Shown: piece by piece, positions 1,387 through 11,019 of the stretch | How the letters are laid out: each line of letters begins with the position of its first letter | Numbering within the stretch: position 1 is the stretch's first letter | Origin: a virus | Length of the DNA: 16,276 bases | UHGV virus genome: UHGV-0160852 | Strand: one strand, 5' to 3' | Notes under the pieces: model-generated | Seen by the model: the letters and a program-made list of their open reading frames with translations, nothing else | Database searches by the model: none | Told to the model about the DNA's origin: nothing | Made by a program: the position numbers and the translations under genes

Positions 1387-2217
1387 TTATGCGATATTTA
1401 TCAAATCAGACACATTTGTCACACGTTTAAGCTGTGAGTCGGTATAACTCTCTTCCTCAAAGCATTTTGTAACAAGACTTTCATAGAAAGGTTTCCAGCT
1501 GTATCGCCAGGTTCGTTCTGGCAGACCAGGCAGCTCAGAGAGCATACCCCTGTAAGCATTTGAAGACTTAGGACGACTATAACCGCGGCCTTCACAACGT
1601 TTACATACTTTGTAGACAGGCACTCCCTGCAGCTCTGACTCTTTACGGTCCAGGGTTTTTCCCGTACCACCACACTGGCATCGCTTGCTGATTTTCCCGG
1701 TGCCGCCGCATTTGAAGCAGAGAACATGGTCAATCTCTTCCACCTGACGTTTCACTTCAAAATCCGAAGGTGACTGCCCGAGGTCTTTTGCCCATTGCGG
1801 TAATCTCATTTTGTAGTGGCTTTTTTCCACCATTGAGGTGTTTTTTATGAAGCCGGAACCAGAACACTTCCTGCAATCTACGCTGTCAGCTGCAGACGAG
1901 GCATAGTCGTTATAAGCGAACCGAGCTATTATCAGCATACACAGCGGGAACTTCTTCCCTGCTGCTTTTCTTATCGATCGAGGCGCTTTTGATTTTGCAT
2001 ATTCAGCCAACCAACTGACGGATGCCTTTCTGTCGTGTTCGCTGATTCCAGCTTTACCCAAAAACATTGACAGGCCTATTCCTGCCTCTGCCTGTGTCAT
2101 CCCCAATGCGGCCATTACATCTGTCACAGTGAGTTGCTCGCTGGCGGTTGCACGACCGCTATCGGAAATATGCATTCCTTTGGGCGCGAAAAATTTGGGA
2201 ATTGATTCTATATTCAT
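1387..2217 (-). CDS. Q: late-gene antitermination protein Q (lambda Q family) with an internal Cys-rich insertion
   Basis: N-terminus MNIESIPKFFAPKGMHISDSGRATASEQLTVTDVMAALGMTQAEAGIG and C-terminus CKRCEGRGYSRPKSSNAYRGMLSELPGLPERTWRYSWKPFYESLVTKCFEEES closely parallel lambda Q as I recall it (MRLESVAKFHSPKSPMMSDSPRATASDSLSGTDVMAAMGMAQSQAGFG ... GRCKGVGYSRMPASAAYRAV...). Start set at the ATG at 2217 (GGAG 8 nt upstream); the track start at 2235 is GTG. Confidence 0.9.
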   Translation of the reverse strand: MNIESIPKFFAPKGMHISDSGRATASEQLTVTDVMAALGMTQAEAGIGLSMFLGKAGISEHDRKASVSWLAEYAKSKAPRSIRKAAGKKFPLCMLIIARFAYNDYASSAADSVDCRKCSGSGFIKNTSMVEKSHYKMRLPQWAKDLGQSPSDFEVKRQVEEIDHVLCFKCGGTGKISKRCQCGGTGKTLDRKESELQGVPVYKVCKRCEGRGYSRPKSSNAYRGMLSELPGLPERTWRYSWKPFYESLVTKCFEEESYTDSQLKRVTNVSDLINIA

Positions 2218-2235
2218 GCTCAGTACTCCATACAC

Positions 2236-3291
2236 TCAAGCTTTTACAATGACGCCGATACCCATTACCCGATCCAGAAAACGAGCCCACAGCTCTAACT
2301 GAGTGCCATATTTCTTTTCGAACGCTGATGTATTGGCGTGTAATTCATCGTGATGCACTCTGCACAGTGGTATCACGAAGAGATCATGGGCCTTGGTGCC
2401 AGTTCCCCCCAGACCATTCCCTATTATATGGTGTGGATCGTCTGATGGTTGCCTACAGCATTCACATGGCTGAGTTTTAACCCAACGTGTGTAAACTTCG
2501 CAGGTCCAGCGCCGGCGCTTCGGGCGGCGCATAAATGATTCGGGGCTGTTCGGATCGACACTAAGCCTCAGAATGGGTTTACTTTCAATCTGAGGTTGCT
2601 CAATGAGTACGCTGGCGTCCGCCAGGTCTATGCCCTCAACAAGATCCTGAAGGATTTCACCTGCAGCAAATGACGGGACAATATCGCTATCCTTATAAAC
2701 GGACAGGAAAGGTTCCTCAGGCAGTCTTAAGGCCTGTTGCGCCATCGTCTCGGTTATTGCGTCAGCAATGCCGGATTTCACAGCCCACCAGCAGAGCTCC
2801 GCCATCGATAATTCTCGCTCCTTATTGTATCCAAGGCTGATCAGCACCCTTTCAATCACCCACTGAACCAGATTCTGATAAGCCAGCTCTGACAACATTT
2901 CGGTGGTCTGCTCACGTAATTCATTATCACAATGCCAGCAGACAACCATGGCGCCAGGCGGATGCCGCATAGTCACTAATTCATGGTGGTGATAGTGGGA
3001 ATGCGGGTACTGGCACTCTCTGACATGTCGTAGAAGCCAGGCCTCAAGAGCGTTAATTCCACCAGCTGCGTTAATAACCCTCTCATCCCTCATGAAAAAA
3101 CGCAGAATGTCCATTTCTGCAAGGGGCTGACGTGCATCGGCGATCCGCCCAGTGGGCAGTGTTTTCATCTTCTCTGGCTGACGTTCTATCAGGACACGGC
3201 CGCCGGTAAAGAGAGACATCAATTCGCGGCCTGGTTTGAAAAGAACAACGCCCAGGCGCGGCACAATTTCCGGAGTAAGCAATGCTCGCAC
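2236..3291 (-). CDS. DUF968 / YdfU-like phage protein with C-terminal Cys/His (HNH-like) cluster
   Basis: 351-aa ORF immediately upstream of Q, the position of ydfU-type genes in lambdoid prophages; C-terminal CECCRQPSDDPHHI...LCRVHHDELH resembles a zinc-stabilised HNH-like motif. GTG start at 3291 preceded by GGGGGG; an alternative ATG lies at 3219. Confidence 0.75.
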   Translation of the reverse strand: MRALLTPEIVPRLGVVLFKPGRELMSLFTGGRVLIERQPEKMKTLPTGRIADARQPLAEMDILRFFMRDERVINAAGGINALEAWLLRHVRECQYPHSHYHHHELVTMRHPPGAMVVCWHCDNELREQTTEMLSELAYQNLVQWVIERVLISLGYNKERELSMAELCWWAVKSGIADAITETMAQQALRLPEEPFLSVYKDSDIVPSFAAGEILQDLVEGIDLADASVLIEQPQIESKPILRLSVDPNSPESFMRRPKRRRWTCEVYTRWVKTQPCECCRQPSDDPHHIIGNGLGGTGTKAHDLFVIPLCRVHHDELHANTSAFEKKYGTQLELWARFLDRVMGIGVIVKA

Positions 3292-3299
3292 AATCCCCC

Positions 3300-3824
3300 C
3301 TAAACAGTCAGATCTTTAAGCTTCTGCACGGCTTTACCAACTTCAGCCATAGCATCTACGAACTCGTCAAACTTCCTGCTGGCCATTCCATATGCCTGGA
3401 GAATCTCCAACTTCAAGGGATCGAGCTGTTTCTTAATTTCTGCACGATCCCCGGCTTTTTTCTCCGCTTCCTCTGCCGCTTTGATCAAGGCGTCAGCCTG
3501 TTTACGTAATGCTTCCGGAGTTACTTCGAGTTGTTTATTCATTTTGCATTCCATCGTCGGCTGAGGAGGTGTCATTACAGGCGCCACAGATTTGTGACCA
3601 TATTTCGGGTGGTGCAAGGTAGTAGACCTTCCATCATCTATCACGCAGAGCATCCCGCTTTCCCGGATTATTTCGATCAGGGTCTCTTTTTCTTTGCGAT
3701 TGAGCCCACTGTATGCCGCCACTTTGTGCGTCAGGTGGGTTAGCGTTGCGCCTTCTGGTTGCCTCTCTACAAAACGCTTTACCCTGGAAAGCACTGGTTG
3801 CAGGTGTGGGGGAGTCATTCTCAT
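3300..3824 (-). CDS. hypothetical nin-region protein (N-terminal winged-helix-like segment, C-terminal predicted coiled coil)
   Basis: ORF track 3300..3830; start placed at the ATG at 3824 with AAGGGG 5 nt upstream. Contains a duplicated MTPP(H/Q)..QP motif. No family assignment. Confidence 0.65.
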   Translation of the reverse strand: MRMTPPHLQPVLSRVKRFVERQPEGATLTHLTHKVAAYSGLNRKEKETLIEIIRESGMLCVIDDGRSTTLHHPKYGHKSVAPVMTPPQPTMECKMNKQLEVTPEALRKQADALIKAAEEAEKKAGDRAEIKKQLDPLKLEILQAYGMASRKFDEFVDAMAEVGKAVQKLKDLTV

Positions 3825-3833
3825 GTTCACCCC

Positions 3834-4664
3834 TTACTGCGTGACAACGCCAATGAGCTTTAAAAGCTCAGGAAATTTCGATTCGAAGAAGTGCGGTTGC
3901 GTCTCACGTGGATTTGCCGGGCTGGTGATGTTTTTACCGTACAGACAACCTTTTGCCGTAACAGACCAGAATCTTTTCACGCCATTGATACCCGTTCGGC
4001 TGCGGCGCTCCTTCTGCTCGACTATGCCGTGACCAGCCATAAGGTGATAAGCCTGGTTCGCGGTCATTCTGATGTTGTTAGCTTTAAGCAAAGCGCTAAG
4101 AGACAGCGTTGGTCTGCTGGAACCATCCTGCGCGCCAGCTGGTGCATCAATGGCATATGAAGGCATTAAATCAGGCAGCCCTGCTACCTGCTGAAGCTTC
4201 TGATATGCTCCGAGCTTTGACGAATTAGAGAGATTGAGCATTTTGGCTGCAGATTCCAGGAGGATTATGCCAGCCTGAATGCGATCGGTATTGACGGTTG
4301 CAGCCCCAGCAGTGTGGAGCGCGTCAAACGTTCTGATGACCTTCAGATTAAAAACAGCGCTGATCCACATCGCGTAGGCATACACCAACTCACGGCAAAC
4401 ATAGGTACCTTGCTCATTTCCGCCGCGGATGACACTTACAGGTTCTGAAATATCCGAGTTGCTATTTTGCAACTCGCCTATCAATTGCGCAGTTTGTTCG
4501 TTACGTAGCCAGAATGCAGGCTTATGGCGGTCAAGGGAGCCGGAAGCACGATGGAGATCGTTTAGGCAATAACGACCAAGGACATCACGACGAACAGAAA
4601 TACCATCAATAACAAAAAAAGTGTGATTATTGGATGCAGCAGCACCCATGACGTGGTTAGTCAT
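3834..4664 (-). CDS. KilA-N domain protein (antirepressor-like)
   Basis: N-terminal FFVIDGISVRRDVLGRYCLNDLHRASG...KPAFWLRNEQTAQLI...GTYVCRELVYAYAMWISAVFNLKV fits the KilA-N/APSES fold signature. Start placed at the ATG at 4664 with GGAG 6 nt upstream. Confidence 0.8.
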   Translation of the reverse strand: MTNHVMGAAASNNHTFFVIDGISVRRDVLGRYCLNDLHRASGSLDRHKPAFWLRNEQTAQLIGELQNSNSDISEPVSVIRGGNEQGTYVCRELVYAYAMWISAVFNLKVIRTFDALHTAGAATVNTDRIQAGIILLESAAKMLNLSNSSKLGAYQKLQQVAGLPDLMPSYAIDAPAGAQDGSSRPTLSLSALLKANNIRMTANQAYHLMAGHGIVEQKERRSRTGINGVKRFWSVTAKGCLYGKNITSPANPRETQPHFFESKFPELLKLIGVVTQ

Positions 4665-4752
4665 AGCTTTCTCCATACATTTTTATGTGACGAAGGGCCT
4701 GCACGCCCGTTTCGTTTGCACTCTTTGACATTACTGCCATATCGGCGAACTT

Positions 4753-5151
4753 TCAACCCACAGCTGTACATGTATCCACCACTTTTTGATAGCAGACTAT
4801 GGTGATTTCTACCCTGCCTCCTTTGACGATTTCACCCCATTCAATAGCCATACGCTTAACCTGGTTGTCGTCCTCCCAGATACCGGCATAAGTCAAAGCA
4901 TCAAGAAGTGCCTTGTTGTAATTGTCCAGGTCACGCCGGCGATAGTCTGGCGGATAGAGAATAATTTCTACCGCTGCTGGCGCAGTAGATGGTTTTGGTA
5001 TTGCACGCAGTTGCTCAATGATCGCTGACCGTACTGCATGTTTGAATTTACGGCCGGCTGCGCTGACAAGATGTTTACCTTTTGCGGGCCCCTTATTTGG
5101 GGACCGCCAGTAGGTGTTCACGCTGGGTGGGAATGGAAGAATAAATTTCAT
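4753..5151 (-). CDS. rusA: crossover junction endodeoxyribonuclease RusA (Holliday junction resolvase)
   Basis: MKFILPFPPSVNTYWR... and PPDYRRRDLDNYNKALLDALTYAGIWEDDNQV match the RusA family hallmark (RRRDLDN catalytic region); 4-bp ATGA overlap with the upstream gene. Confidence 0.93.
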   Translation of the reverse strand: MKFILPFPPSVNTYWRSPNKGPAKGKHLVSAAGRKFKHAVRSAIIEQLRAIPKPSTAPAAVEIILYPPDYRRRDLDNYNKALLDALTYAGIWEDDNQVKRMAIEWGEIVKGGRVEITIVCYQKVVDTCTAVG

Positions 5152-5624
5152 TCTGCCTCCAGCACTATTTTCAACTCAAACGGAACATCTCCTCCGCAAT
5201 AGCAGAGCGGGCCAAGGTCAGACATGAGGCTCCACAGGGTCATTGACGTATAGCCATTTTCGTCTGTTACCGGGGGCGAAAAGTCCCCGAAGATCCCCGG
5301 GTGCTGGATTCGATTCTGCTCGTGTTGTTTTTCCAAATGTCTGAGGGAAACTTCATTAAGTTTCACTTTTACGATGCTGTTGAGATTGACCGATATTTCT
5401 CTGGCCAACAGCGAAGGGGTGATACTGATACCGCGAGAAACCCCGCGGGTGATTGTGATAACACCCTTTTTCTCCAACGCCTTGAGGTGCGTTGCTGCTG
5501 CATTGGGGGACCGGCACCCCAGCATGCCGGTCAGTTCGTAAGTTGTAGGCGGAAAACCATGTATACGCTGATATTCGATCAGGAGGTCCAGTACCTCCTG
5601 CTGCCTTAAGGTCAAGGAAGTCAT
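5148..5624 (-). CDS. LexA N-terminal DNA-binding-domain homolog lacking the S24 peptidase domain
   Basis: MTSLTLRQQEVLDLLIEYQRIHGFPPTTYELTGMLGCRSPNAAATHLKALEKKGVITITRGVSRGI parallels E. coli LexA residues 1-70 ([66 protein letters not shown]); the C-terminal ~85 aa has no Ser/Lys peptidase signature. Start at the ATG at 5624 (GAGGAG upstream, ATGA overlap with the MTase stop); alternative ATG at 5651. Confidence 0.8.
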   Translation of the reverse strand: MTSLTLRQQEVLDLLIEYQRIHGFPPTTYELTGMLGCRSPNAAATHLKALEKKGVITITRGVSRGISITPSLLAREISVNLNSIVKVKLNEVSLRHLEKQHEQNRIQHPGIFGDFSPPVTDENGYTSMTLWSLMSDLGPLCYCGGDVPFELKIVLEAE

Positions 5625-7591
5625 GCTGCCTGCTCCTCTCTGTTCACGCACATTTCGGGTAAGTTGGCGCGAACCAGCGCTTCGGCGAACGGCGGCGGGA
5701 CGGCATTGCCACAGCGCGCAACCTGCTTATCTTTCGCGTATTTCACGCCGCGGTAATCCTGGTCAATGATGTACCACTCGGGGAAGCCCTGCGCCCGGTA
5801 AAGTTCGTGTGGCTGCAGCATGCGCATGCCGATATCAACGATGCGGTAAGTCACTCCGCCGATTTCCACCAGACCGGTGCATTCCTCTCCGCAGTATTCC
5901 TGCAGGAACGACAGCACCTGCTGCGCTCGCTCTTCGTCATAGTCCTCGACTGCCAGAGTCGTTTTAACCTCGCCTACGTGCTGGCCACCAGCAGTGATAG
6001 TCGGCATCGGCTCGTCAGTGCGCTGGCCATCGCGGCATGTACCACGGAGCTTGATCAGATGAGACGTAACCATTGCGGCATCAGCCTTTGTCGTCATGGT
6101 TTGCAATGGCTCGCTAACGTCACGTGGCCTGCTCTGCCCAGCGCGACCGCCAACACCAACAATCTGAGCAGTAACCAGCGCATGATGATCGACGGTAGTA
6201 ACTGAATGAGCTGGTTCATCCAAGTCAATACCGGCGCCCTGATAATTCCCGCCATAGTGTTTCGCCAGGAATGCGGATACCAGTTGCGATTTACCGCCGC
6301 CGCCCGCGGTGATTGTTGCGCTAGGTTCATCCGCCCGGTGTCCGATGCTTGCGCCGAACTGCCGGGCGATAACCGGAGCGACGACACAGGCGCGCGATTC
6401 TTTCAGGATGGTGTGAGCGGGTTTATCGAGAGGGCGTGGTTTAGCCTGGTACTCGCTGCCGCCATTGCCAGCCAGGAACGGCGCCAGCTCTGCTTCAACA
6501 ATACCCAGAGCGTGACCATTCCCGCCCGGGCGTTTTGCGGTACCGGCCGTCACCGTCGGCAACGGATCGGTGACTTCCTGCCCGGTAGCTCCGGTTCGGA
6601 ATTTTGTCAGATGAGGTACCGCAATTGCGTAGCCGTGGGTTTTCGTAATCGTCTGTAGCGGATCGTCCAGCGCCTGTCCCCGGAAACAGTCGTAATTGCC
6701 ACGTGTCGTTGTGTGATTGCACTTCACAATGAATGGCGAAGCACTTTCGATAACAAAGCGCTGAATGCCGCGGGCAATCCGTTTTAGCGTATTCTCAGCC
6801 AGTGACTTTTTGCGACCGAAGATGCTCGGCGCGGGGATTGACCAGTCTATGCATTCCGCAGCTGTACGCCACGGCTCAAGCTGGCCCGCCAGCACGGCGG
6901 CAGACTTCGGATCCCCGTGCGTGGCTTCCGGCCAGACTATCGGTTTCCCGTCCCGGCGCATCACCATGAAGAACCGCTTACGGATGGTCGGCGCGCCATA
7001 ATCGCAGGCGCGCAGCTCGCGAAAATCGACGACATAACCCAGCCCGGCAATTAAGCGCTGGGCCTGCTCGCTATCCGGTGAAAACTCCAGAAACTCGCAA
7101 CACTCCACCAGTGCAGGATGATCTGCTGGAATACCGGTGGTAAGCATCCCGACAAATGCATTGAAAGTTTCACCGATGCGTGCCGGATCCGGGCGCATTT
7201 CTGCCGCGAGTAACGGGCCCCACGTTTTAAACTCTTCGACGTTTTCCAGCATCATGACTCGCGGGCCAACATCCAGCGCCCAACGAATGACGATCCATGC
7301 CAGCCCTCGAATAGCTTTCTCTACTGGTTTAGCACCTTTCGCTTTAGAAAAGTGACGACAGTCAGGCGAGAACCATGCCAGGCCGACAGGCTTGCCACTG
7401 GTAGCGGCTAATGGGGATACATCAAACACACTTTCGCAATAGTGAAGCGTGTCGGGATGGTTAGTGCGGTGCATAGCAACGGCGTTAACATCGTGGTTAA
7501 TAGCAATATCAACACTGCGCCCTATTGCCAGTTCAATACCTGTACTGGCGCCACCGCCGCCAGCGAAATTATCGACAATAATCTCACGCAT
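5621..7591 (-). CDS. DNA cytosine-5 methyltransferase with an unusually long, internally repetitive variable region
   Basis: Motif I FAGGGG, PC motif FSPDCRHFSKAKG, ENV motif MMLENVEEF, motif VIII-like TIRKRFFMV and C-terminal motif X CGNAVPPP. Between the catalytic halves about 350 aa carry seven repeats of (D/E)-x-P-x-x-T-[IVM]-T. Confidence 0.93.
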   Translation of the reverse strand: MREIIVDNFAGGGGASTGIELAIGRSVDIAINHDVNAVAMHRTNHPDTLHYCESVFDVSPLAATSGKPVGLAWFSPDCRHFSKAKGAKPVEKAIRGLAWIVIRWALDVGPRVMMLENVEEFKTWGPLLAAEMRPDPARIGETFNAFVGMLTTGIPADHPALVECCEFLEFSPDSEQAQRLIAGLGYVVDFRELRACDYGAPTIRKRFFMVMRRDGKPIVWPEATHGDPKSAAVLAGQLEPWRTAAECIDWSIPAPSIFGRKKSLAENTLKRIARGIQRFVIESASPFIVKCNHTTTRGNYDCFRGQALDDPLQTITKTHGYAIAVPHLTKFRTGATGQEVTDPLPTVTAGTAKRPGGNGHALGIVEAELAPFLAGNGGSEYQAKPRPLDKPAHTILKESRACVVAPVIARQFGASIGHRADEPSATITAGGGGKSQLVSAFLAKHYGGNYQGAGIDLDEPAHSVTTVDHHALVTAQIVGVGGRAGQSRPRDVSEPLQTMTTKADAAMVTSHLIKLRGTCRDGQRTDEPMPTITAGGQHVGEVKTTLAVEDYDEERAQQVLSFLQEYCGEECTGLVEIGGVTYRIVDIGMRMLQPHELYRAQGFPEWYIIDQDYRGVKYAKDKQVARCGNAVPPPFAEALVRANLPEMCVNREEQAA

Positions 7592-8537
7592 GAGCGGTCC
7601 CCCTCATGCTGCCGACCAGCCCACCAGCAACGGTGATGATTTCGCTGGTGGGCACCCGCTCCAGCCACAACTGGTTAATGTGGGCCTTCAGCTTGTTCTG
7701 CTGGGAGAATTCCAGATCCCCTGCGCCTTGTACCTGTCCGAAGATGAGACCAACTTCCAGTGGCCAGATCCGGGATTCAGCCTCAGCTAATGATGCAACC
7801 GCATCGGGGATGATCACTTCAGGAGACTGAACTGGCGAAGCTGGTGGCAGGAATTTTGCTGCAGCAAACTCAGCCAAAGCCATACTTGCGCGCCCTTTCG
7901 CCTCAAGCTCTATACGATCGATATAGCTAAAGCGCTCTCCGCACCATGTCTTATCAAATATCACGATTGCACCAGCAAAGAAGGCGCTGGTGGGTTTCTG
8001 TTTATCATCCGCCGGCACAAACCAGGTCGGGAGATCGAAACCAATACGACCACGGATAAAACACACATGATCGGCATCTTCTGGCCACCATGTCTCGCTT
8101 GTCGCTGACTTCAGCAGGAAAACATAGCGCCCGCCCTTTTCTCGCTGCTCAGATGCATAACTCATGATGTGAGTCATGCCGGTGACTGCCTGTTTTTCGT
8201 GGTACTGAGAACGGCTATACGGTGGATTACCAAATCCTGCGCCACCAAGTTCTTCAAGGCGAGCGGACCAGTCCTGTGTTAAAGCGTTATCTTCAGCGGT
8301 ATACCATGCGGGGCATTTTGCATTGCTGTCGTCTGCAAACAGGTCCAGTACAAGCGGGCCAAACATAGCGTTAACGCCCCAGAACAGCAGATCAGGGGTA
8401 CGCCATTGATCCCCGACTTCTTTTAAATAATGCGCACTACGCTGGCGCTGTTCCTCAAGTGCCAGGCAATAAGGGCTGACGGTTTTTGTTAAAGTTTGCT
8501 CTTCTGCGGTCATAGCTTCTTGTACTTCCTGACTCAT
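7584..8537 (-). CDS. phage Dam-like DNA N6-adenine methyltransferase (NPPY motif) with C-terminal extension
   Basis: WRTPDLLFWGVNAMFGPLVLDLFADDSNAKCPAWYT and GFGNPPYSR match the phage N6-adenine methyltransferase (Dam) family; 8-bp overlap with the C5-MTase start. Confidence 0.8.
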   Translation of the reverse strand: MSQEVQEAMTAEEQTLTKTVSPYCLALEEQRQRSAHYLKEVGDQWRTPDLLFWGVNAMFGPLVLDLFADDSNAKCPAWYTAEDNALTQDWSARLEELGGAGFGNPPYSRSQYHEKQAVTGMTHIMSYASEQREKGGRYVFLLKSATSETWWPEDADHVCFIRGRIGFDLPTWFVPADDKQKPTSAFFAGAIVIFDKTWCGERFSYIDRIELEAKGRASMALAEFAAAKFLPPASPVQSPEVIIPDAVASLAEAESRIWPLEVGLIFGQVQGAGDLEFSQQNKLKAHINQLWLERVPTSEIITVAGGLVGSMRGTAHA

Positions 8538-8728
8538 AGTTTTCCCCTGCGCTGATCAGCATCAACAAGTGCTCTCAGTAACCAGTAACGGCGATCAAAG
8601 CTGAAAAGGTCATTTCTGAGGAGTGCATATTTTCTGCGAAAAATAACGTCGTGCTGCCACCAGTAACGCCAGTGATGCAAACGCACAAGGCGCCGGAGAC
8701 TTATCAAAACCTTCTTCAATCGGAGCAC
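8534..8728 (-). CDS. possible small Arg/Trp-rich ORF (64 aa)
   Basis: Fills the gap between the PerC-like and Dam-like genes with an ATGA overlap, but the composition is unusual and there is no family support. Confidence 0.25.
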   Translation of the reverse strand: MLRLKKVLISLRRLVRLHHWRYWWQHDVIFRRKYALLRNDLFSFDRRYWLLRALVDADQRRGKL

Positions 8729-9174
8729 AAGTCACCTCCACAGTAATTTCCGGCCAGATAGCATGACCCGGCGGAATCATTCATGTTTCTGGCGTTTCGA
8801 ACAGAAGCATTCTTAAGACGCAGGTATCGCTCTCTTGCTTTAGCCGTACAGTTGCTGTCACAAAGTTGCTGCCATACCGTCGCCGCACGGCGGTAATAGC
8901 GTTTCTCTTCCAGCTTTTTGGCTGTCGCTTCAAGGGCAAGAATCTCCCCCGAAAGCCCACCAGGCAGGTACTCTTCAATATCGATGGATCCCGCTACGAA
9001 GTAGATAAACCCACCAGTAACTTCAACGCTGGCAAGTTCCCCGTCGTAGTAAAGGCGATGAACAGCGCTCTTCACTGTTACCGGTTTGGTTCCAGGAAAT
9101 GCAGCAGTGATATCGCGCAGCATTTTGCCGGGATTCTTCTCAATAAATTCAAAGATCGACTTGGCTATGTTCAT
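8716..9174 (-). CDS. PerC-like transcriptional regulator (N-terminal winged-helix-like segment)
   Basis: Segment AKKLEEKRYYRRAATVWQQL resembles the conserved RRAA-x-x-W core I recall for the PerC/Pch family; ATGA overlap with the replication gene stop. Confidence 0.55.
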   Translation of the reverse strand: MNIAKSIFEFIEKNPGKMLRDITAAFPGTKPVTVKSAVHRLYYDGELASVEVTGGFIYFVAGSIDIEEYLPGGLSGEILALEATAKKLEEKRYYRRAATVWQQLCDSNCTAKARERYLRLKNASVRNARNMNDSAGSCYLAGNYCGGDLCSD

Positions 9175-10082
9175 CCCCGGAACCCCCGTGGAATTGTGGT
9201 TTGTACTGGACTAATTGAATTAACATCCCGCGGTCTGGTTTTGTCCCACGACTCCCTTGGCGGGCGGCCTTTAGCATCCCAGCGGATAGCGCTTTGCAGA
9301 TATCCCTCGAATTTTTTAGGGCCGAAAAGTGTCTCGGGTCGCATGTACTGGTATTGCTCGTCGTTGCCATGCCAGTGCTCATGCTTGACGTCGATTACCA
9401 GTTTCAAGTCGCTAACGGTATGACCTTCGCGGAGGCGGGCGCGAATGTTCTCCAGTGAGGTCTTAGATTTCTGGTAACGGGAACCGCTGACCAGATTCAG
9501 GTGTGCCAGAACTTCGATCGCGTTATCGGTAATAACAACTTCATGATCCGGCTTATCGTCGGGTTCCGCTGGAGCCCGACAAGAAGGTTTTTTAGATGAC
9601 GGATCTAATGACGGATCTAATGACGGATCGCCTTCAACCATTGAGGGGTCCTCCCGCAATATTTGAGGGGGTACAGACCCATTATTTGAGGCATCAGAAT
9701 TTGACCCCTCAAATTTTGAACCCTCAAATTCTGAGGCATCAAATTTTGATTGTTCACGTGGCGTTGCGTAGAAGATTTTTGCTTCAGCTGCTGCACGTTC
9801 AAGCATGTCCACATTGAGTTTATAAACGTTCGAATTATTCTTTCCGCCAACGCGCCGTTCCTGCTTCTTCAGCCAGCCTTTAGCCTGAAGCTTTTTGATA
9901 GCGCTGCGGACAGTATTCTCGCTCTTGGCGCCGATCTGTCGCTGAATAGTGGTTACCGCTGGCCATGACACCCCTTCGTCATTACTGAAGTCTGCCAGGC
10001 GAGCCATGACCGCTATTTCAGAGATTATCAGCCCTTTGAAAGCGCATGCTTCCCATACGAGGCCGTGTAATTTACTGCTCAT
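9171..10082 (-). CDS. replication initiator / replisome organizer (O-like: N-terminal HTH, repeat-encoded linker, conserved phage C-terminal domain)
   Basis: N-terminal winged-helix region (VSWPAVTTIQRQIGAKSENTVRSAIKKLQAKGWL), low-complexity linker (SKFDASEFEGSKFEGS...DPSLDPSLDPSS) encoded by DNA repeats, and a C-terminal block (NLVSGSRYQKSKTSLENIRARLREGHTVSDLKLVIDVKHEHW) typical of phage replication proteins. Sits in the lambda O position after cro and the cII-position gene. Confidence 0.85.
   Translation of the reverse strand: MSSKLHGLVWEACAFKGLIISEIAVMARLADFSNDEGVSWPAVTTIQRQIGAKSENTVRSAIKKLQAKGWLKKQERRVGGKNNSNVYKLNVDMLERAAAEAKIFYATPREQSKFDASEFEGSKFEGSNSDASNNGSVPPQILREDPSMVEGDPSLDPSLDPSSKKPSCRAPAEPDDKPDHEVVITDNAIEVLAHLNLVSGSRYQKSKTSLENIRARLREGHTVSDLKLVIDVKHEHWHGNDEQYQYMRPETLFGPKKFEGYLQSAIRWDAKGRPPRESWDKTRPRDVNSISPVQTTIPRGFRG
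9596..9750. repeat. candidate origin of replication: GATC-bearing 12-bp tandem repeats plus direct and inverted ATTTGAGG iterons inside the O-like gene
   Basis: About 2.9 copies of GACGGATCTAAT at 9598-9630 (three GATC sites); ATTTGAGGGGG, ATTTGAGGCATCAGAATTTGA, then inverted CCCCTCAAATTTTGAA and CCCTCAAATTCTGAGGCATCAAATTTTGA at 9661-9749. Same placement as ori-lambda in the interdomain linker of O. Confidence 0.6.
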
Positions 10083-10091
10083 GGCTGCCCT

Positions 10092-10418
10092 CTACTTCCC
10101 TGAACTTGCGTTGAAACTGATCGAGTGGGCTAAAGCACTCGTGGGAATAGCCTTCCCGCAGGTAGATGACGCGACGTGTCTCAGACTCCCAGCGGATAAC
10201 TCTGACTGGATTGCCATAGTGGTCTTTGAACTTCCGGTTAACTTCTCGCATAGCGCTTTAGCCCTCCGGTTAAAGACCCCCACAACTCCGCGTGCCCGAC
10301 TGTGGTTACACTCGACCCATTTACCGCATACCATGCGCTCATACCGAAACGACGAAACGCCCGGGATCGGGTACATCCGTAGTTGCGGTAATTGAAGATT
10401 TACGATTAAATTGCTCAT
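10092..10418 (-). CDS. hypothetical protein between the cII-position gene and the replication gene (gene model unresolved)
   Basis: Only open frame covering 10252-10418 on the minus strand (ATG at 10418, MSNLIVNL...). Its C-terminal third is Ser/Thr/Ala-rich and overlaps an alternative 59-aa ORF (10072..10251, MREVNRKFKDHYGNPVRVIRWESETRRVIYLREGYSHECFSPLDQFQRKFREVEGSHEQ) that looks more protein-like. Confidence 0.35.
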   Translation of the reverse strand: MSNLIVNLQLPQLRMYPIPGVSSFRYERMVCGKWVECNHSRARGVVGVFNRRAKALCEKLTGSSKTTMAIQSELSAGSLRHVASSTCGKAIPTSALAHSISFNASSGK

Positions 10419-10423
10419 GCGGA

Positions 10424-10975
10424 TTATTTCTCCATACACAAAGATTTATTCGCCACGACGCCCGGAGCTGCACACTCGCGGGCGTCACTCTTTTCTGGCT
10501 GACAAAAGACACGGAACAGTAACGTTAAATGTTCCTGCCATTTCGCCATCACCTGATAGCTGTTCTCCTCAATTTGCTCGCGTTCTGCCTGGTCAATTAC
10601 CCCATCAGCTGTAGCTTTACGCAGGTACTGCGAGTGTTTTCCTATCCACTCAATGGACTCCATAAGACGCTGGTTAATATCTGCGTTGTCCACGTCTTCA
10701 ATATCTGCCAACGGAACAAAAACGCCGTTCGAGTGACGCGCTATAGCATTGGCAATATGATTTGACCCACCAGCACGCTGCAGCACCATTGCCCAGCCGA
10801 GAGGGAAAATCTGATCACCATCGGCACGTAAACGGTTAAACAATGCGTTTTCAGTAACGCCCAGCCACTCCGCAGCTTCCACGTAACCACCGTCCAAATC
10901 AGTGATAGTTTTTTTGATAGCGGCCACCAGCCATGCCGGCTGCTTATCTACTTTCCATTCAGGTTCGATACCCAC
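10424..10975 (-). CDS. cII-position regulatory protein (possible CII/CP76- or YdaT-like), HTH-like segment
   Basis: 183-aa ORF between cro and the replication gene; GTG start at 10975 with AAGGGG 6 nt upstream; segment AAEWLGVTENALFNRL is HTH-like. Family assignment is by position and size only. Confidence 0.6.
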   Translation of the reverse strand: MGIEPEWKVDKQPAWLVAAIKKTITDLDGGYVEAAEWLGVTENALFNRLRADGDQIFPLGWAMVLQRAGGSNHIANAIARHSNGVFVPLADIEDVDNADINQRLMESIEWIGKHSQYLRKATADGVIDQAEREQIEENSYQVMAKWQEHLTLLFRVFCQPEKSDARECAAPGVVANKSLCMEK

Positions 10976-11019
10976 GGCTTACCCCTTACTTCTGTGGTTA
11001 ATGCACCCCAAAACAATTG

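Follow-up and report, generated by a model that had tools for sequence, protein, structure and literature searches.

Positions 9558-9752 of the viral genome UHGV-0160852 are probably a vegetative replication origin, situated inside the linker-coding part of a replication initiator gene. The DNA that was analysed (16,276 nucleotides; hereafter the window) represents the early region (16.3 kb) of a lambdoid Klebsiella prophage. The block at 9558-9752 carries an array of short palindromic repeats (iterons) and three GATC boxes, and among relatives its sequence is conserved as DNA and not as protein. Comparison across relatives makes it well supported that this is a further example of the phage lambda design in a different, widespread initiator family; as a kind of system it is not new. 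The conserved GATC boxes and a DnaT-like tail of the initiator are the parts that could prove to be new biology. For a module found widely among Enterobacterales prophages, the result narrows a probable origin down to about 200 bp. A published description of this origin was not found in the openly accessible literature, and mention in subscription journals is possible.

Selection on the DNA of the linker-coding block

The relatives fetched for comparison comprise 80 viral loci, 80 genomic loci across Enterobacterales, named phages and one 44-kb circular element. Family-wide comparisons include about 150 distinct relatives (149 for the GATC counts). The block and the gene that contains it have the following parts.

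9558-9752 (gene nucleotides 331-525, codons 111-175): block under DNA-level constraint, delimited by a drop in diversity; putative origin as a whole
9171-10082, minus strand: replication initiator gene, 303 amino acids, defined by its open reading frame (ORF) and translation and by Pfam, PHROG and AlphaFold
9765-10082, minus strand: region coding for the N-terminal winged-helix domain (amino acids 1-106), the presumed reader of the iterons
9174-9230, minus strand: DnaT-like C-terminal 19 residues (…IPRGFRG), from BLASTP against E. coli K-12 DnaT

Among the 42 distinct closest sequences, diversity at third codon positions falls tenfold, from 0.289 outside the block to 0.030 inside it. Inside the block it is equal at codon positions 1, 2 and 3 (0.028, 0.033 and 0.030), and in this closest group amino-acid changes outnumber silent changes. 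The same dip in diversity is seen in the group of relatives at 61-63% identity. Because third-position diversity collapses and the codon positions are equal, the comparison of relatives shows that selection in the block acts on DNA and not on protein. The block coincides with a predicted disordered linker (amino acids 107-175), and since the repeats encode this linker, the protein would constrain the DNA little there. In an information-content analysis of 91 distinct segments from many genera, with the first GATC as anchor, a core some 45 nt long, which reads TTTGACCCGTCAGAATCTGGnGGGGATCCGTCAGTAAATTCAAAA...GATCCATCA, is nearly invariant and holds equal information at all codon positions.

Codon choice in the linker is also skewed. 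Its 13 serines are encoded by nine TCA and four TCT codons and by nothing else, against a TCA share of 16% in 14 other ORFs of the window; family-wide, TCA makes up 56% of serine codons in the linker and 14% elsewhere. In the iterons of relatives the codons for S-K-S-D are fixed, and the codon in the spacer varies in the amino acid that it specifies (A, P, V, G, L, Q or T). There is a lesson for annotation here: collapsed synonymous variation in a disordered linker is a strong non-coding signal inside a coding region.

The block might instead have no function as DNA, being a low-complexity linker made by slippage (with SKFEG and DPSL repeats), an overlapping gene or a structured RNA. As a peptide the linker is repetitive, ORFs in other frames run through 9596-9817 on the plus strand and 9617-9850 on the minus strand, and the region folds well as RNA (z -3.4 and -5.0). 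We nevertheless regard this explanation as scarcely credible, as synonymous sites are conserved like all others, amino-acid changes exceed silent ones and the choice of serine codons is fixed. An overlapping gene was rejected: no alternative frame stays open through the block in the family, the best one being free of stop codons in 36/140, and the plus-strand ORF is confined to the closest group. A structured RNA was likewise rejected, as the conserved core has neither a consensus structure (about -2.4 to -2.9 kcal/mol) nor covariation. The strong fold of the single window sequence follows from its palindromic cores. Rfam has no match for the block, and no promoter-like or terminator-like site was found inside it.

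Iterons, GATC boxes and the candidate unwinding stretch

The principal repeats are four 15-bp units at 9690-9749 with palindromic 11-bp cores of the TCAAAWTTTGA type. The window has exact matches to TCARAWTYTGA at 9694, 9709, 9724 and 9739 only, and Tandem Repeats Finder reports a 15-bp period with 4.3 copies at 9684-9746. The first-pass annotation had described two direct and two inverted copies of the core ATTTGAGG, and these are indeed present, at 9661 and 9684 on the plus strand and at 9707 and 9722 on the minus strand (span 9661-9729). The whole window has five copies of this core against 0.69 expected, a count reached in 0/200 shuffles. Direct and inverted copies are mixed because each core (TCAAA-A-TTTGA) is itself a palindrome, and an array with a 15-bp period describes the site more accurately. 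Between the main array and the GATC units lie three degenerate copies. The elements in and around the array are as follows.

9690-9749: four iterons, with cores at 9694-9704, 9709-9719, 9724-9734 and 9739-9749, exactly 15 bp apart
9675-9689: fifth, degenerate unit, coding strand TCAAATAATGGGTCT; the left half-site alone is kept, and it is read in the register of the array
9650-9671: out-of-frame iteron-like copy, coding strand CCCCCTCAAATATTGCGGGAGG, which encodes P-P-Q-I-L-R-E
9630-9644: terminal iteron, coding strand TCAATGGTTGAAGGC, which abuts the first GATC box
9594-9629: three GATC boxes, coding strand GATCCGTCATTA, GATCCGTCATTA and GATCCGTCATCT; candidate element for unwinding or methylation control
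9576-9593: right-hand border of the block, an A6 tract and CCTTCTTGTCGG; moderately conserved, with AAAAAACCTTCTTGT recurring in relatives
7584-8537, minus strand: phage gene for a Dam-type N6-adenine methyltransferase in the same operon; an associated gene and not part of the origin

The out-of-frame copy reads CCC CCT CAA ATA TTG CGG, against TCA AAA TTT GAG GGG in frame. Its motif (CCCC TCAAATATTGA GGGG) is the in-frame iteron of the Erwinia, Morganella and Edwardsiella relatives. The arrangement of TCAATGGTTGA, four G/C-rich bases and then GATCCGTCA is common to the Erwinia, Mixta and Edwardsiella relatives, which belong to the same N-domain clade; the Morganella relative has CCAATGGTTGA in place of the shared form. 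Taken jointly, the four iterons make a 61-bp imperfect dyad (9684-9744) with 30-nt arms that are 80% complementary, and as a single strand the iteron region gives the strong folds mentioned above. A cruciform or hairpin at the origin is conceivable; the 61-bp dyad is known from the window's clade.

Homologous genes that lack the repeats would speak against an origin at this place. The repeats are present in about 150 relatives, and a comparison of copy number, as proposed in the first-pass annotation, gives 2-9 iteron units per gene. The cores are conserved, the 4-bp spacers vary, and the indels in the sequences that were read are 15-bp steps. The core differs by clade. The window's own N-domain clade (MSSKLH...) has TCAAAnnTTGA with flanks of G/C runs, and 71% of its copies have T as the eighth base; the other, larger clade has TCAnAATCTGA, with C as the eighth base in 85%. 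This fits a binding domain and a site that co-evolve, and the clade-specific base would then predict initiator specificity.

The N-domain with its repeats occurs in combination with at least three kinds of C-terminal region. Among 80 genomic loci, 55 have Phg_2220_C and 23 a KpF5-type domain at the C-terminus. The third type, followed directly by genes for a DnaC-like protein and a helicase, occurs in phiP27 (L083), Providencia (L159-L161) and Citrobacter (L163). By analogy with the logic of lambda, the N-domain and the origin would be one specificity unit, and the C-domain would match the helicase-loading partner. The C-terminal type switches right after the block while N-domain and block stay together, and the core is near-identical across genera whose N-domains are 40-50% diverged. 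Both observations would also suit a block that is mainly a homology patch for swapping the N- and C-halves of initiators among lambdoid phages, its similarity being due to frequent exchange. We hold this to be improbable. Recent exchange gives no palindromic, 15-bp-phased array with variable copy number, and it leaves unexplained the conserved cores with variable spacers, the clade-specific core base and the fixed choice of GAT versus GAC a few codons apart. Recombination at the block is better read as a consequence of a conserved origin, which for lambda is the accepted view.

The GATC boxes are repeats of a different class. As the first-pass annotation had it, a 12-bp repeat with GATC lies in the linker-coding stretch: Tandem Repeats Finder gives the unit ATGACGGATCTA in 2.8 copies with 100% match at 9596-9629, with GATC in each copy (9602, 9614 and 9626). 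On the coding (minus) strand the unit is GAT CCG TCA TTA and encodes D-P-S-L. The idea that the boxes are disguised iterons was rejected, as the TCA half-site alone is common to both. At least two GATC within 60 nt are found in 146/149 distinct relatives and at the same gene position in 143/149, and in relatives GATC reaches a density of 59.5 per kb within the cluster, compared with 3.8 per kb over the remaining gene. GATCC is near-invariant. In the neighbouring F-D-P motif, Asp is encoded by GAC in 54 cases and by GAT in a single one, while GAT-CC is retained in the boxes. The sites are 24 bp apart in most relatives, 12/12 in the window's group, 18/16 in Erwinia/Edwardsiella and 24/24 in Providencia. 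In the Providencia loci (L159-L161), a clean 24-bp tandem repeat, GATCCATCAGTAAATTCAAAACAT, is present in three copies at about gene nucleotides 460-530. This repeat suggests that the 12-bp units of the window are a shortened form of an ancestral 24-bp unit.

The cluster carries weight because it is conserved in relatives and not through the statistics of the window, where a 12-bp tandem duplication yields three GATC copies trivially. Three sites within 24 bp arise in 37% of random placements, and five within 113 bp in 13% of random placements of the window's 78 sites. A GATC cluster that is a statistical anomaly of the window was for this reason rejected (P about 0.13-0.37). GATC is not avoided in the prophage, with 78 sites against 60.6 expected, a number reached in 3/200 shuffles.

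In neither clade is any 20-bp stretch within 200 bp on either side less stable than the box region, which is 66-70% AT and flanked by stretches of 27-44% AT. The stability minimum of the window sequence lies at 9581-9620, about 40 bp of 63-70% AT with GC-rich flanks, and many other spots in the window are far richer in AT than the box region. The AT-rich flanks that the first-pass annotation assigned to the repeats are real in so far as AT is raised (60-67% against a window mean of 49%), but the rise is modest, unlike the AT-rich tract of lambda. On these stability estimates we read the GATC-box region as a likely unwinding element, with a tract much weaker than that of lambda.

The repeats could also be initiator sites for autoregulation, copy control or incompatibility, with the true origin elsewhere. 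The iteron arrays of plasmids and of V. cholerae chromosome II also serve negative control (PMC2865523), and no strong AT-rich tract or DnaA box stands beside the array. On the other hand, a conserved stretch of low stability with a GC-rich bound follows the array, in the polarity of ori-lambda, and the window has no second array of this kind. We give this explanation little chance; the block is more probably the origin itself.

The first-pass annotation had connected the GATC sites with two adenine methyltransferases of the prophage. Only one of the two enzymes is of the Dam type (PF05869, E-value 2.2e-42; TIGR01712 equivalog, 190 bits against a cutoff of 97), and the other is of the C5-cytosine type. 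A homologue of the Dam-type enzyme is encoded downstream of the initiator, no more than 2.5-3 kb away, in 48/50, 26/30 and 38/80 related loci. The second methylase (656 amino acids, 5621-7591, minus strand) matches PF00145, the C5-cytosine family, and in the comparison with the circular element pKqq_SB1124_5 its homologue is annotated as "DNA cytosine methyltransferase". The PF00145 match is clear only in the first 120 or so residues (best stretch amino acids 6-122), and amino acids 299-656 match only PHROG "DNA methyltransferase" families of unknown type. The gene overlaps the end of the Dam gene by 8 bp, and the pair of methylase genes recurs in many relatives.

By analogy with methylation-dependent origins, the GATC boxes may serve methylation-sensitive control of the origin. 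The alternative is that the boxes, GATCCRTCA, are read as sequence by a protein, either through a second specificity of the initiator or by a host factor, so that GATC is incidental and methylation has no part. The conserved stretch is indeed longer than GATC, taking in GATCCGTCA and, for most relatives, GGGGATCCGTCAGTAAAT; the spacing of the boxes is variable (12/12, 18/16, 24 and 24/24), as it is for binding-site repeats; and in some lineages the second GATC is GAAC. Against this, the bases GATC are among the most conserved positions and a gene for a Dam-type methylase is commonly linked downstream. SeqA recognises close pairs of GATC (PMC2691817), and the GATC-containing repeats of V. cholerae oriII have a proven requirement for methylation (PMC2865523). 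Incidental GATC sites are a possibility to be taken seriously, if an unlikely one.

The initiator and the proposed course of initiation

By its family matches the protein is an HTH_36 plus Phg_2220_C phage initiator (PHROG 428). Pfam places HTH_36 (PF13730) at amino acids 22-71 (E-value 1.1e-8, 35.2 bits, cutoff 25) and Phg_2220_C (PF09524) at amino acids 191-263 (E-value 3e-23, 82.1 bits, cutoff 27). TIGR02220 is matched with 69.6 bits against a cutoff of 66.65, and the best PHROG is phrog_428, "replication initiation protein" (E-value 2.8e-63). The Pfam match to DnaD_N is weak (E-value 0.0014). Pfam gives no match to Phage_rep_O, the lambda O family, and membership of that family was rejected on this ground. 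An AlphaFold model made with 28 homologues has a winged helix at amino acids 3-106, a predicted local distance difference test score below 50 at amino acids 107-175 and helices at amino acids 180-270, and predicts that the middle part is a disordered linker between the two domains. The winged-helix N-domain is 51-71% identical in 80 Enterobacterales loci, and the repeats always follow it. A fold search returned generic winged-helix DNA binders of the MarR/Fur type only (E-value 0.014 or worse), and a sequence search of solved structures gave no informative relative.

The last 19 residues of the initiator resemble those of E. coli DnaT (primosomal protein I). Eleven of the 19 are identical, both stretches are extreme C-termini and both end in IPxGFRG (RDVNSISPVQTTIPRGFRG in the initiator against RDVNTVSEPDSQIPPGFRG in DnaT), while the remainder of the two proteins is not alignable. 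P298, G300, F301, R302 and G303 of the terminal P-x-G-F-R-G are invariant in the 28 homologues. The tail is probably the reason why relatives are annotated as "primosomal protein I". DnaT acts with PriA and PriB in loading DnaB-DnaC (PMC13220808); a binding partner of its last residues was not found stated in the literature searched. Downstream of the initiator (window 1387-9174), Pfam and PHROG annotation gives no gene for a helicase, a P-like helicase loader or a primase, and by its gene content the replication module is of an "initiator-solo" type. The DnaT-like tail hints that the initiator loads DnaB via the restart-primosome route of the host, and suggests how a phage without a loader might gain the host helicase.

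We propose the following course of events. The N-terminal winged helix would bind the palindromic 11-bp cores, probably as dimers, at four good and three degenerate copies. The resulting nucleoprotein array would distort the DNA and open the adjacent, least stable 40 bp or so, which hold the three GATCCGTCA boxes between GC-rich bounds. The Phg_2220_C domain and the DnaT-like tail would recruit the DnaB-DnaC machinery of the host, a step proposed because the phage encodes no loader or helicase. The GATC sites would render opening or re-firing sensitive to Dam methylation and SeqA. We infer initiator binding, the unwinding site, host-factor recruitment and the role of methylation from sequence.

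Several points weigh against an origin of this description. Binding, unwinding and origin activity are deduced from sequence. A pronounced AT-rich tract is absent, the maximum being 63-70% AT; there is no DnaA box (TTWTNCACA with at most one mismatch) within 8644-10992 and no match to the IHF consensus in 9000-10100. The 15-bp distance from centre to centre is tight for dimers of a winged helix, so not every unit need be filled simultaneously. The difference in iterons between clades is essentially one evolutionary event. The GATC cluster is unremarkable within the window, and in a few lineages its second GATC is lost through an Asp-to-Glu change. Frequent recombination could in part keep the block conserved, and repeats bound by the initiator could serve autoregulation or copy control and not initiation.

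A bolder proposal would make the GATC boxes an unwinding element in which methylation by host and phage Dam, read by SeqA or the initiator, gates firing, and would make the initiator an imitator of DnaT that loads the host helicase in the stead of a phage loader, with the IPxGFRG tail leading into the PriB/DnaT-to-DnaC-DnaB restart pathway. We put this forward as speculation that is more likely wrong than right by a wide measure. If true, the joint route of GATC gating and DnaT mimicry would be one not described for phages. Synonymous GAT-to-GAC changes would eliminate the GATC sites, which offers a clean experimental handle.

Known origins, gene order and spread of the module

The first-pass annotation had likened the block to the lambda origin inside O. 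The placement of the origin within the initiator gene has gained comparative support, but the protein is "O-like" only by analogy and no P-like gene is present. As in ori-lambda of lambda and Stx phages, which has four or six iterons and an AT-rich tract (PMC7466680), the putative origin lies in the middle of the initiator gene, between a DNA-binding N-domain and a helicase-recruiting C-domain. Both have several repeated sites, each with internal dyad symmetry and G/C-rich ends, and window copies such as CCCCTCAAATATTGCGGG resemble lambda's TCCCTCAAATTGGGGGA (PMC7466680). Both share the polarity from iterons to an easily melted stretch to a GC-rich border, and in both the copy number varies among related phages and adds residues to the protein (PMC7466680). 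Unlike lambda, the initiator is built of HTH_36 and Phg_2220_C without a Phage_rep_O match, and a P-like loader gene is absent downstream. The 11-bp core has a tight period of 15 bp, against lambda iterons of about 18-19 bp (from primer sequences in PMC7466680). The candidate for the melted region is only 63-70% AT and has conserved GATC boxes, which PMC7466680 does not list among the elements of ori-lambda. In Stx phage Min27, the protein annotated as "O" (L164 1438-2106; found by tblastn) is an HTH_36 protein too. The linker of this protein reads GGAGAARGGAGAALGGGAGAA and is repetitive, and there might be a different origin there.

Other origins resemble parts of the block. The origin of V. 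cholerae chromosome II, with its 11-mers and 12-mers for RctB, has short tandem repeats that each contain GATC, as do the three 12-bp units of the window, and full methylation is needed for RctB to bind its repeats (PMC2865523). The initiators are unrelated, and whereas the GATC repeats of oriII are the iterons, the main iterons here are without GATC and the boxes are a second repeat class. The 13-mers of E. coli oriC and the heptamers of P1 oriR belong to methylation-dependent, SeqA-sequestered origins with GATC repeats. These origins likewise have a close GATC cluster in or beside the candidate unwinding region, and the spacings found here are compatible with SeqA binding to GATC pairs (PMC2691817). 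Unlike oriC and P1 oriR, the block has no nearby DnaA boxes, its stretch is less AT-rich and it lies within coding sequence.

Temperate phages of Gram-positive bacteria, e.g., lactococcal TP901-1, have replisome-organiser or DnaD-like initiators with the origin inside the gene. Many "replication initiation" and "replisome organizer" proteins of Staphylococcus, Streptococcus, Lactobacillus and Bacillus phages have the Phg_2220_C domain in common with the present initiator. Only the C-domain is common, with 30-48% identity over about 75-90 residues, and the N-domain with its repeats is specific to the Enterobacterales group.

Klebsiella phage Kp4866-6 has an initiator gene 98.8% identical to that of the window. 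A divergent gene for a cI-like repressor with an S24 peptidase domain precedes the minus-strand genes of the window, whose order is as follows.

First part: cII-like, DUF4222, initiator (9171-10082), PerC-like activator, small ORF
Middle part: Dam-type methylase, C5-cytosine-type methylase, LexA-DBD protein, RusA, KilA-N
Last part: 176-amino-acid ORF without a Pfam match (3300-3830), DUF968/HNH, antiterminator Q

The module is carried by Klebsiella, Enterobacter, E. coli, Shigella SfII and SfIV, the Stx2e phage phiP27, Yersinia, Providencia and Erwinia, and judged by these relatives the arrangement is common to a large, uncharacterised prophage family across Enterobacterales. One carrier, pKqq_SB1124_5 (NZ_CP084811.1, L166), is a 44,270-bp circular "plasmid" of Klebsiella quasipneumoniae that is a phage genome with the same early module. 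In the linker of its initiator (L166 3001-4050) there are YCRRAATCTGR iterons and three GATC sites, and the element is listed without a plasmid replicon type. It could be a phage-plasmid or an excised, replicating prophage, and a circular extrachromosomal element with the same module is a circumstantial hint in support of an origin in the block.

Two small genes of the early region may be added. The DUF4222 gene (59 amino acids, 10072-10251, minus strand) overlaps the start of the initiator gene. It directly precedes the initiator in 50/50, 30/30 and 56/80 related loci and may be part of the replication module. The LexA-DBD protein (167 amino acids, 5148-5651, minus strand), in which no peptidase domain was detected, has its gene in the early rightward operon, after those of the methylases and before that of RusA.

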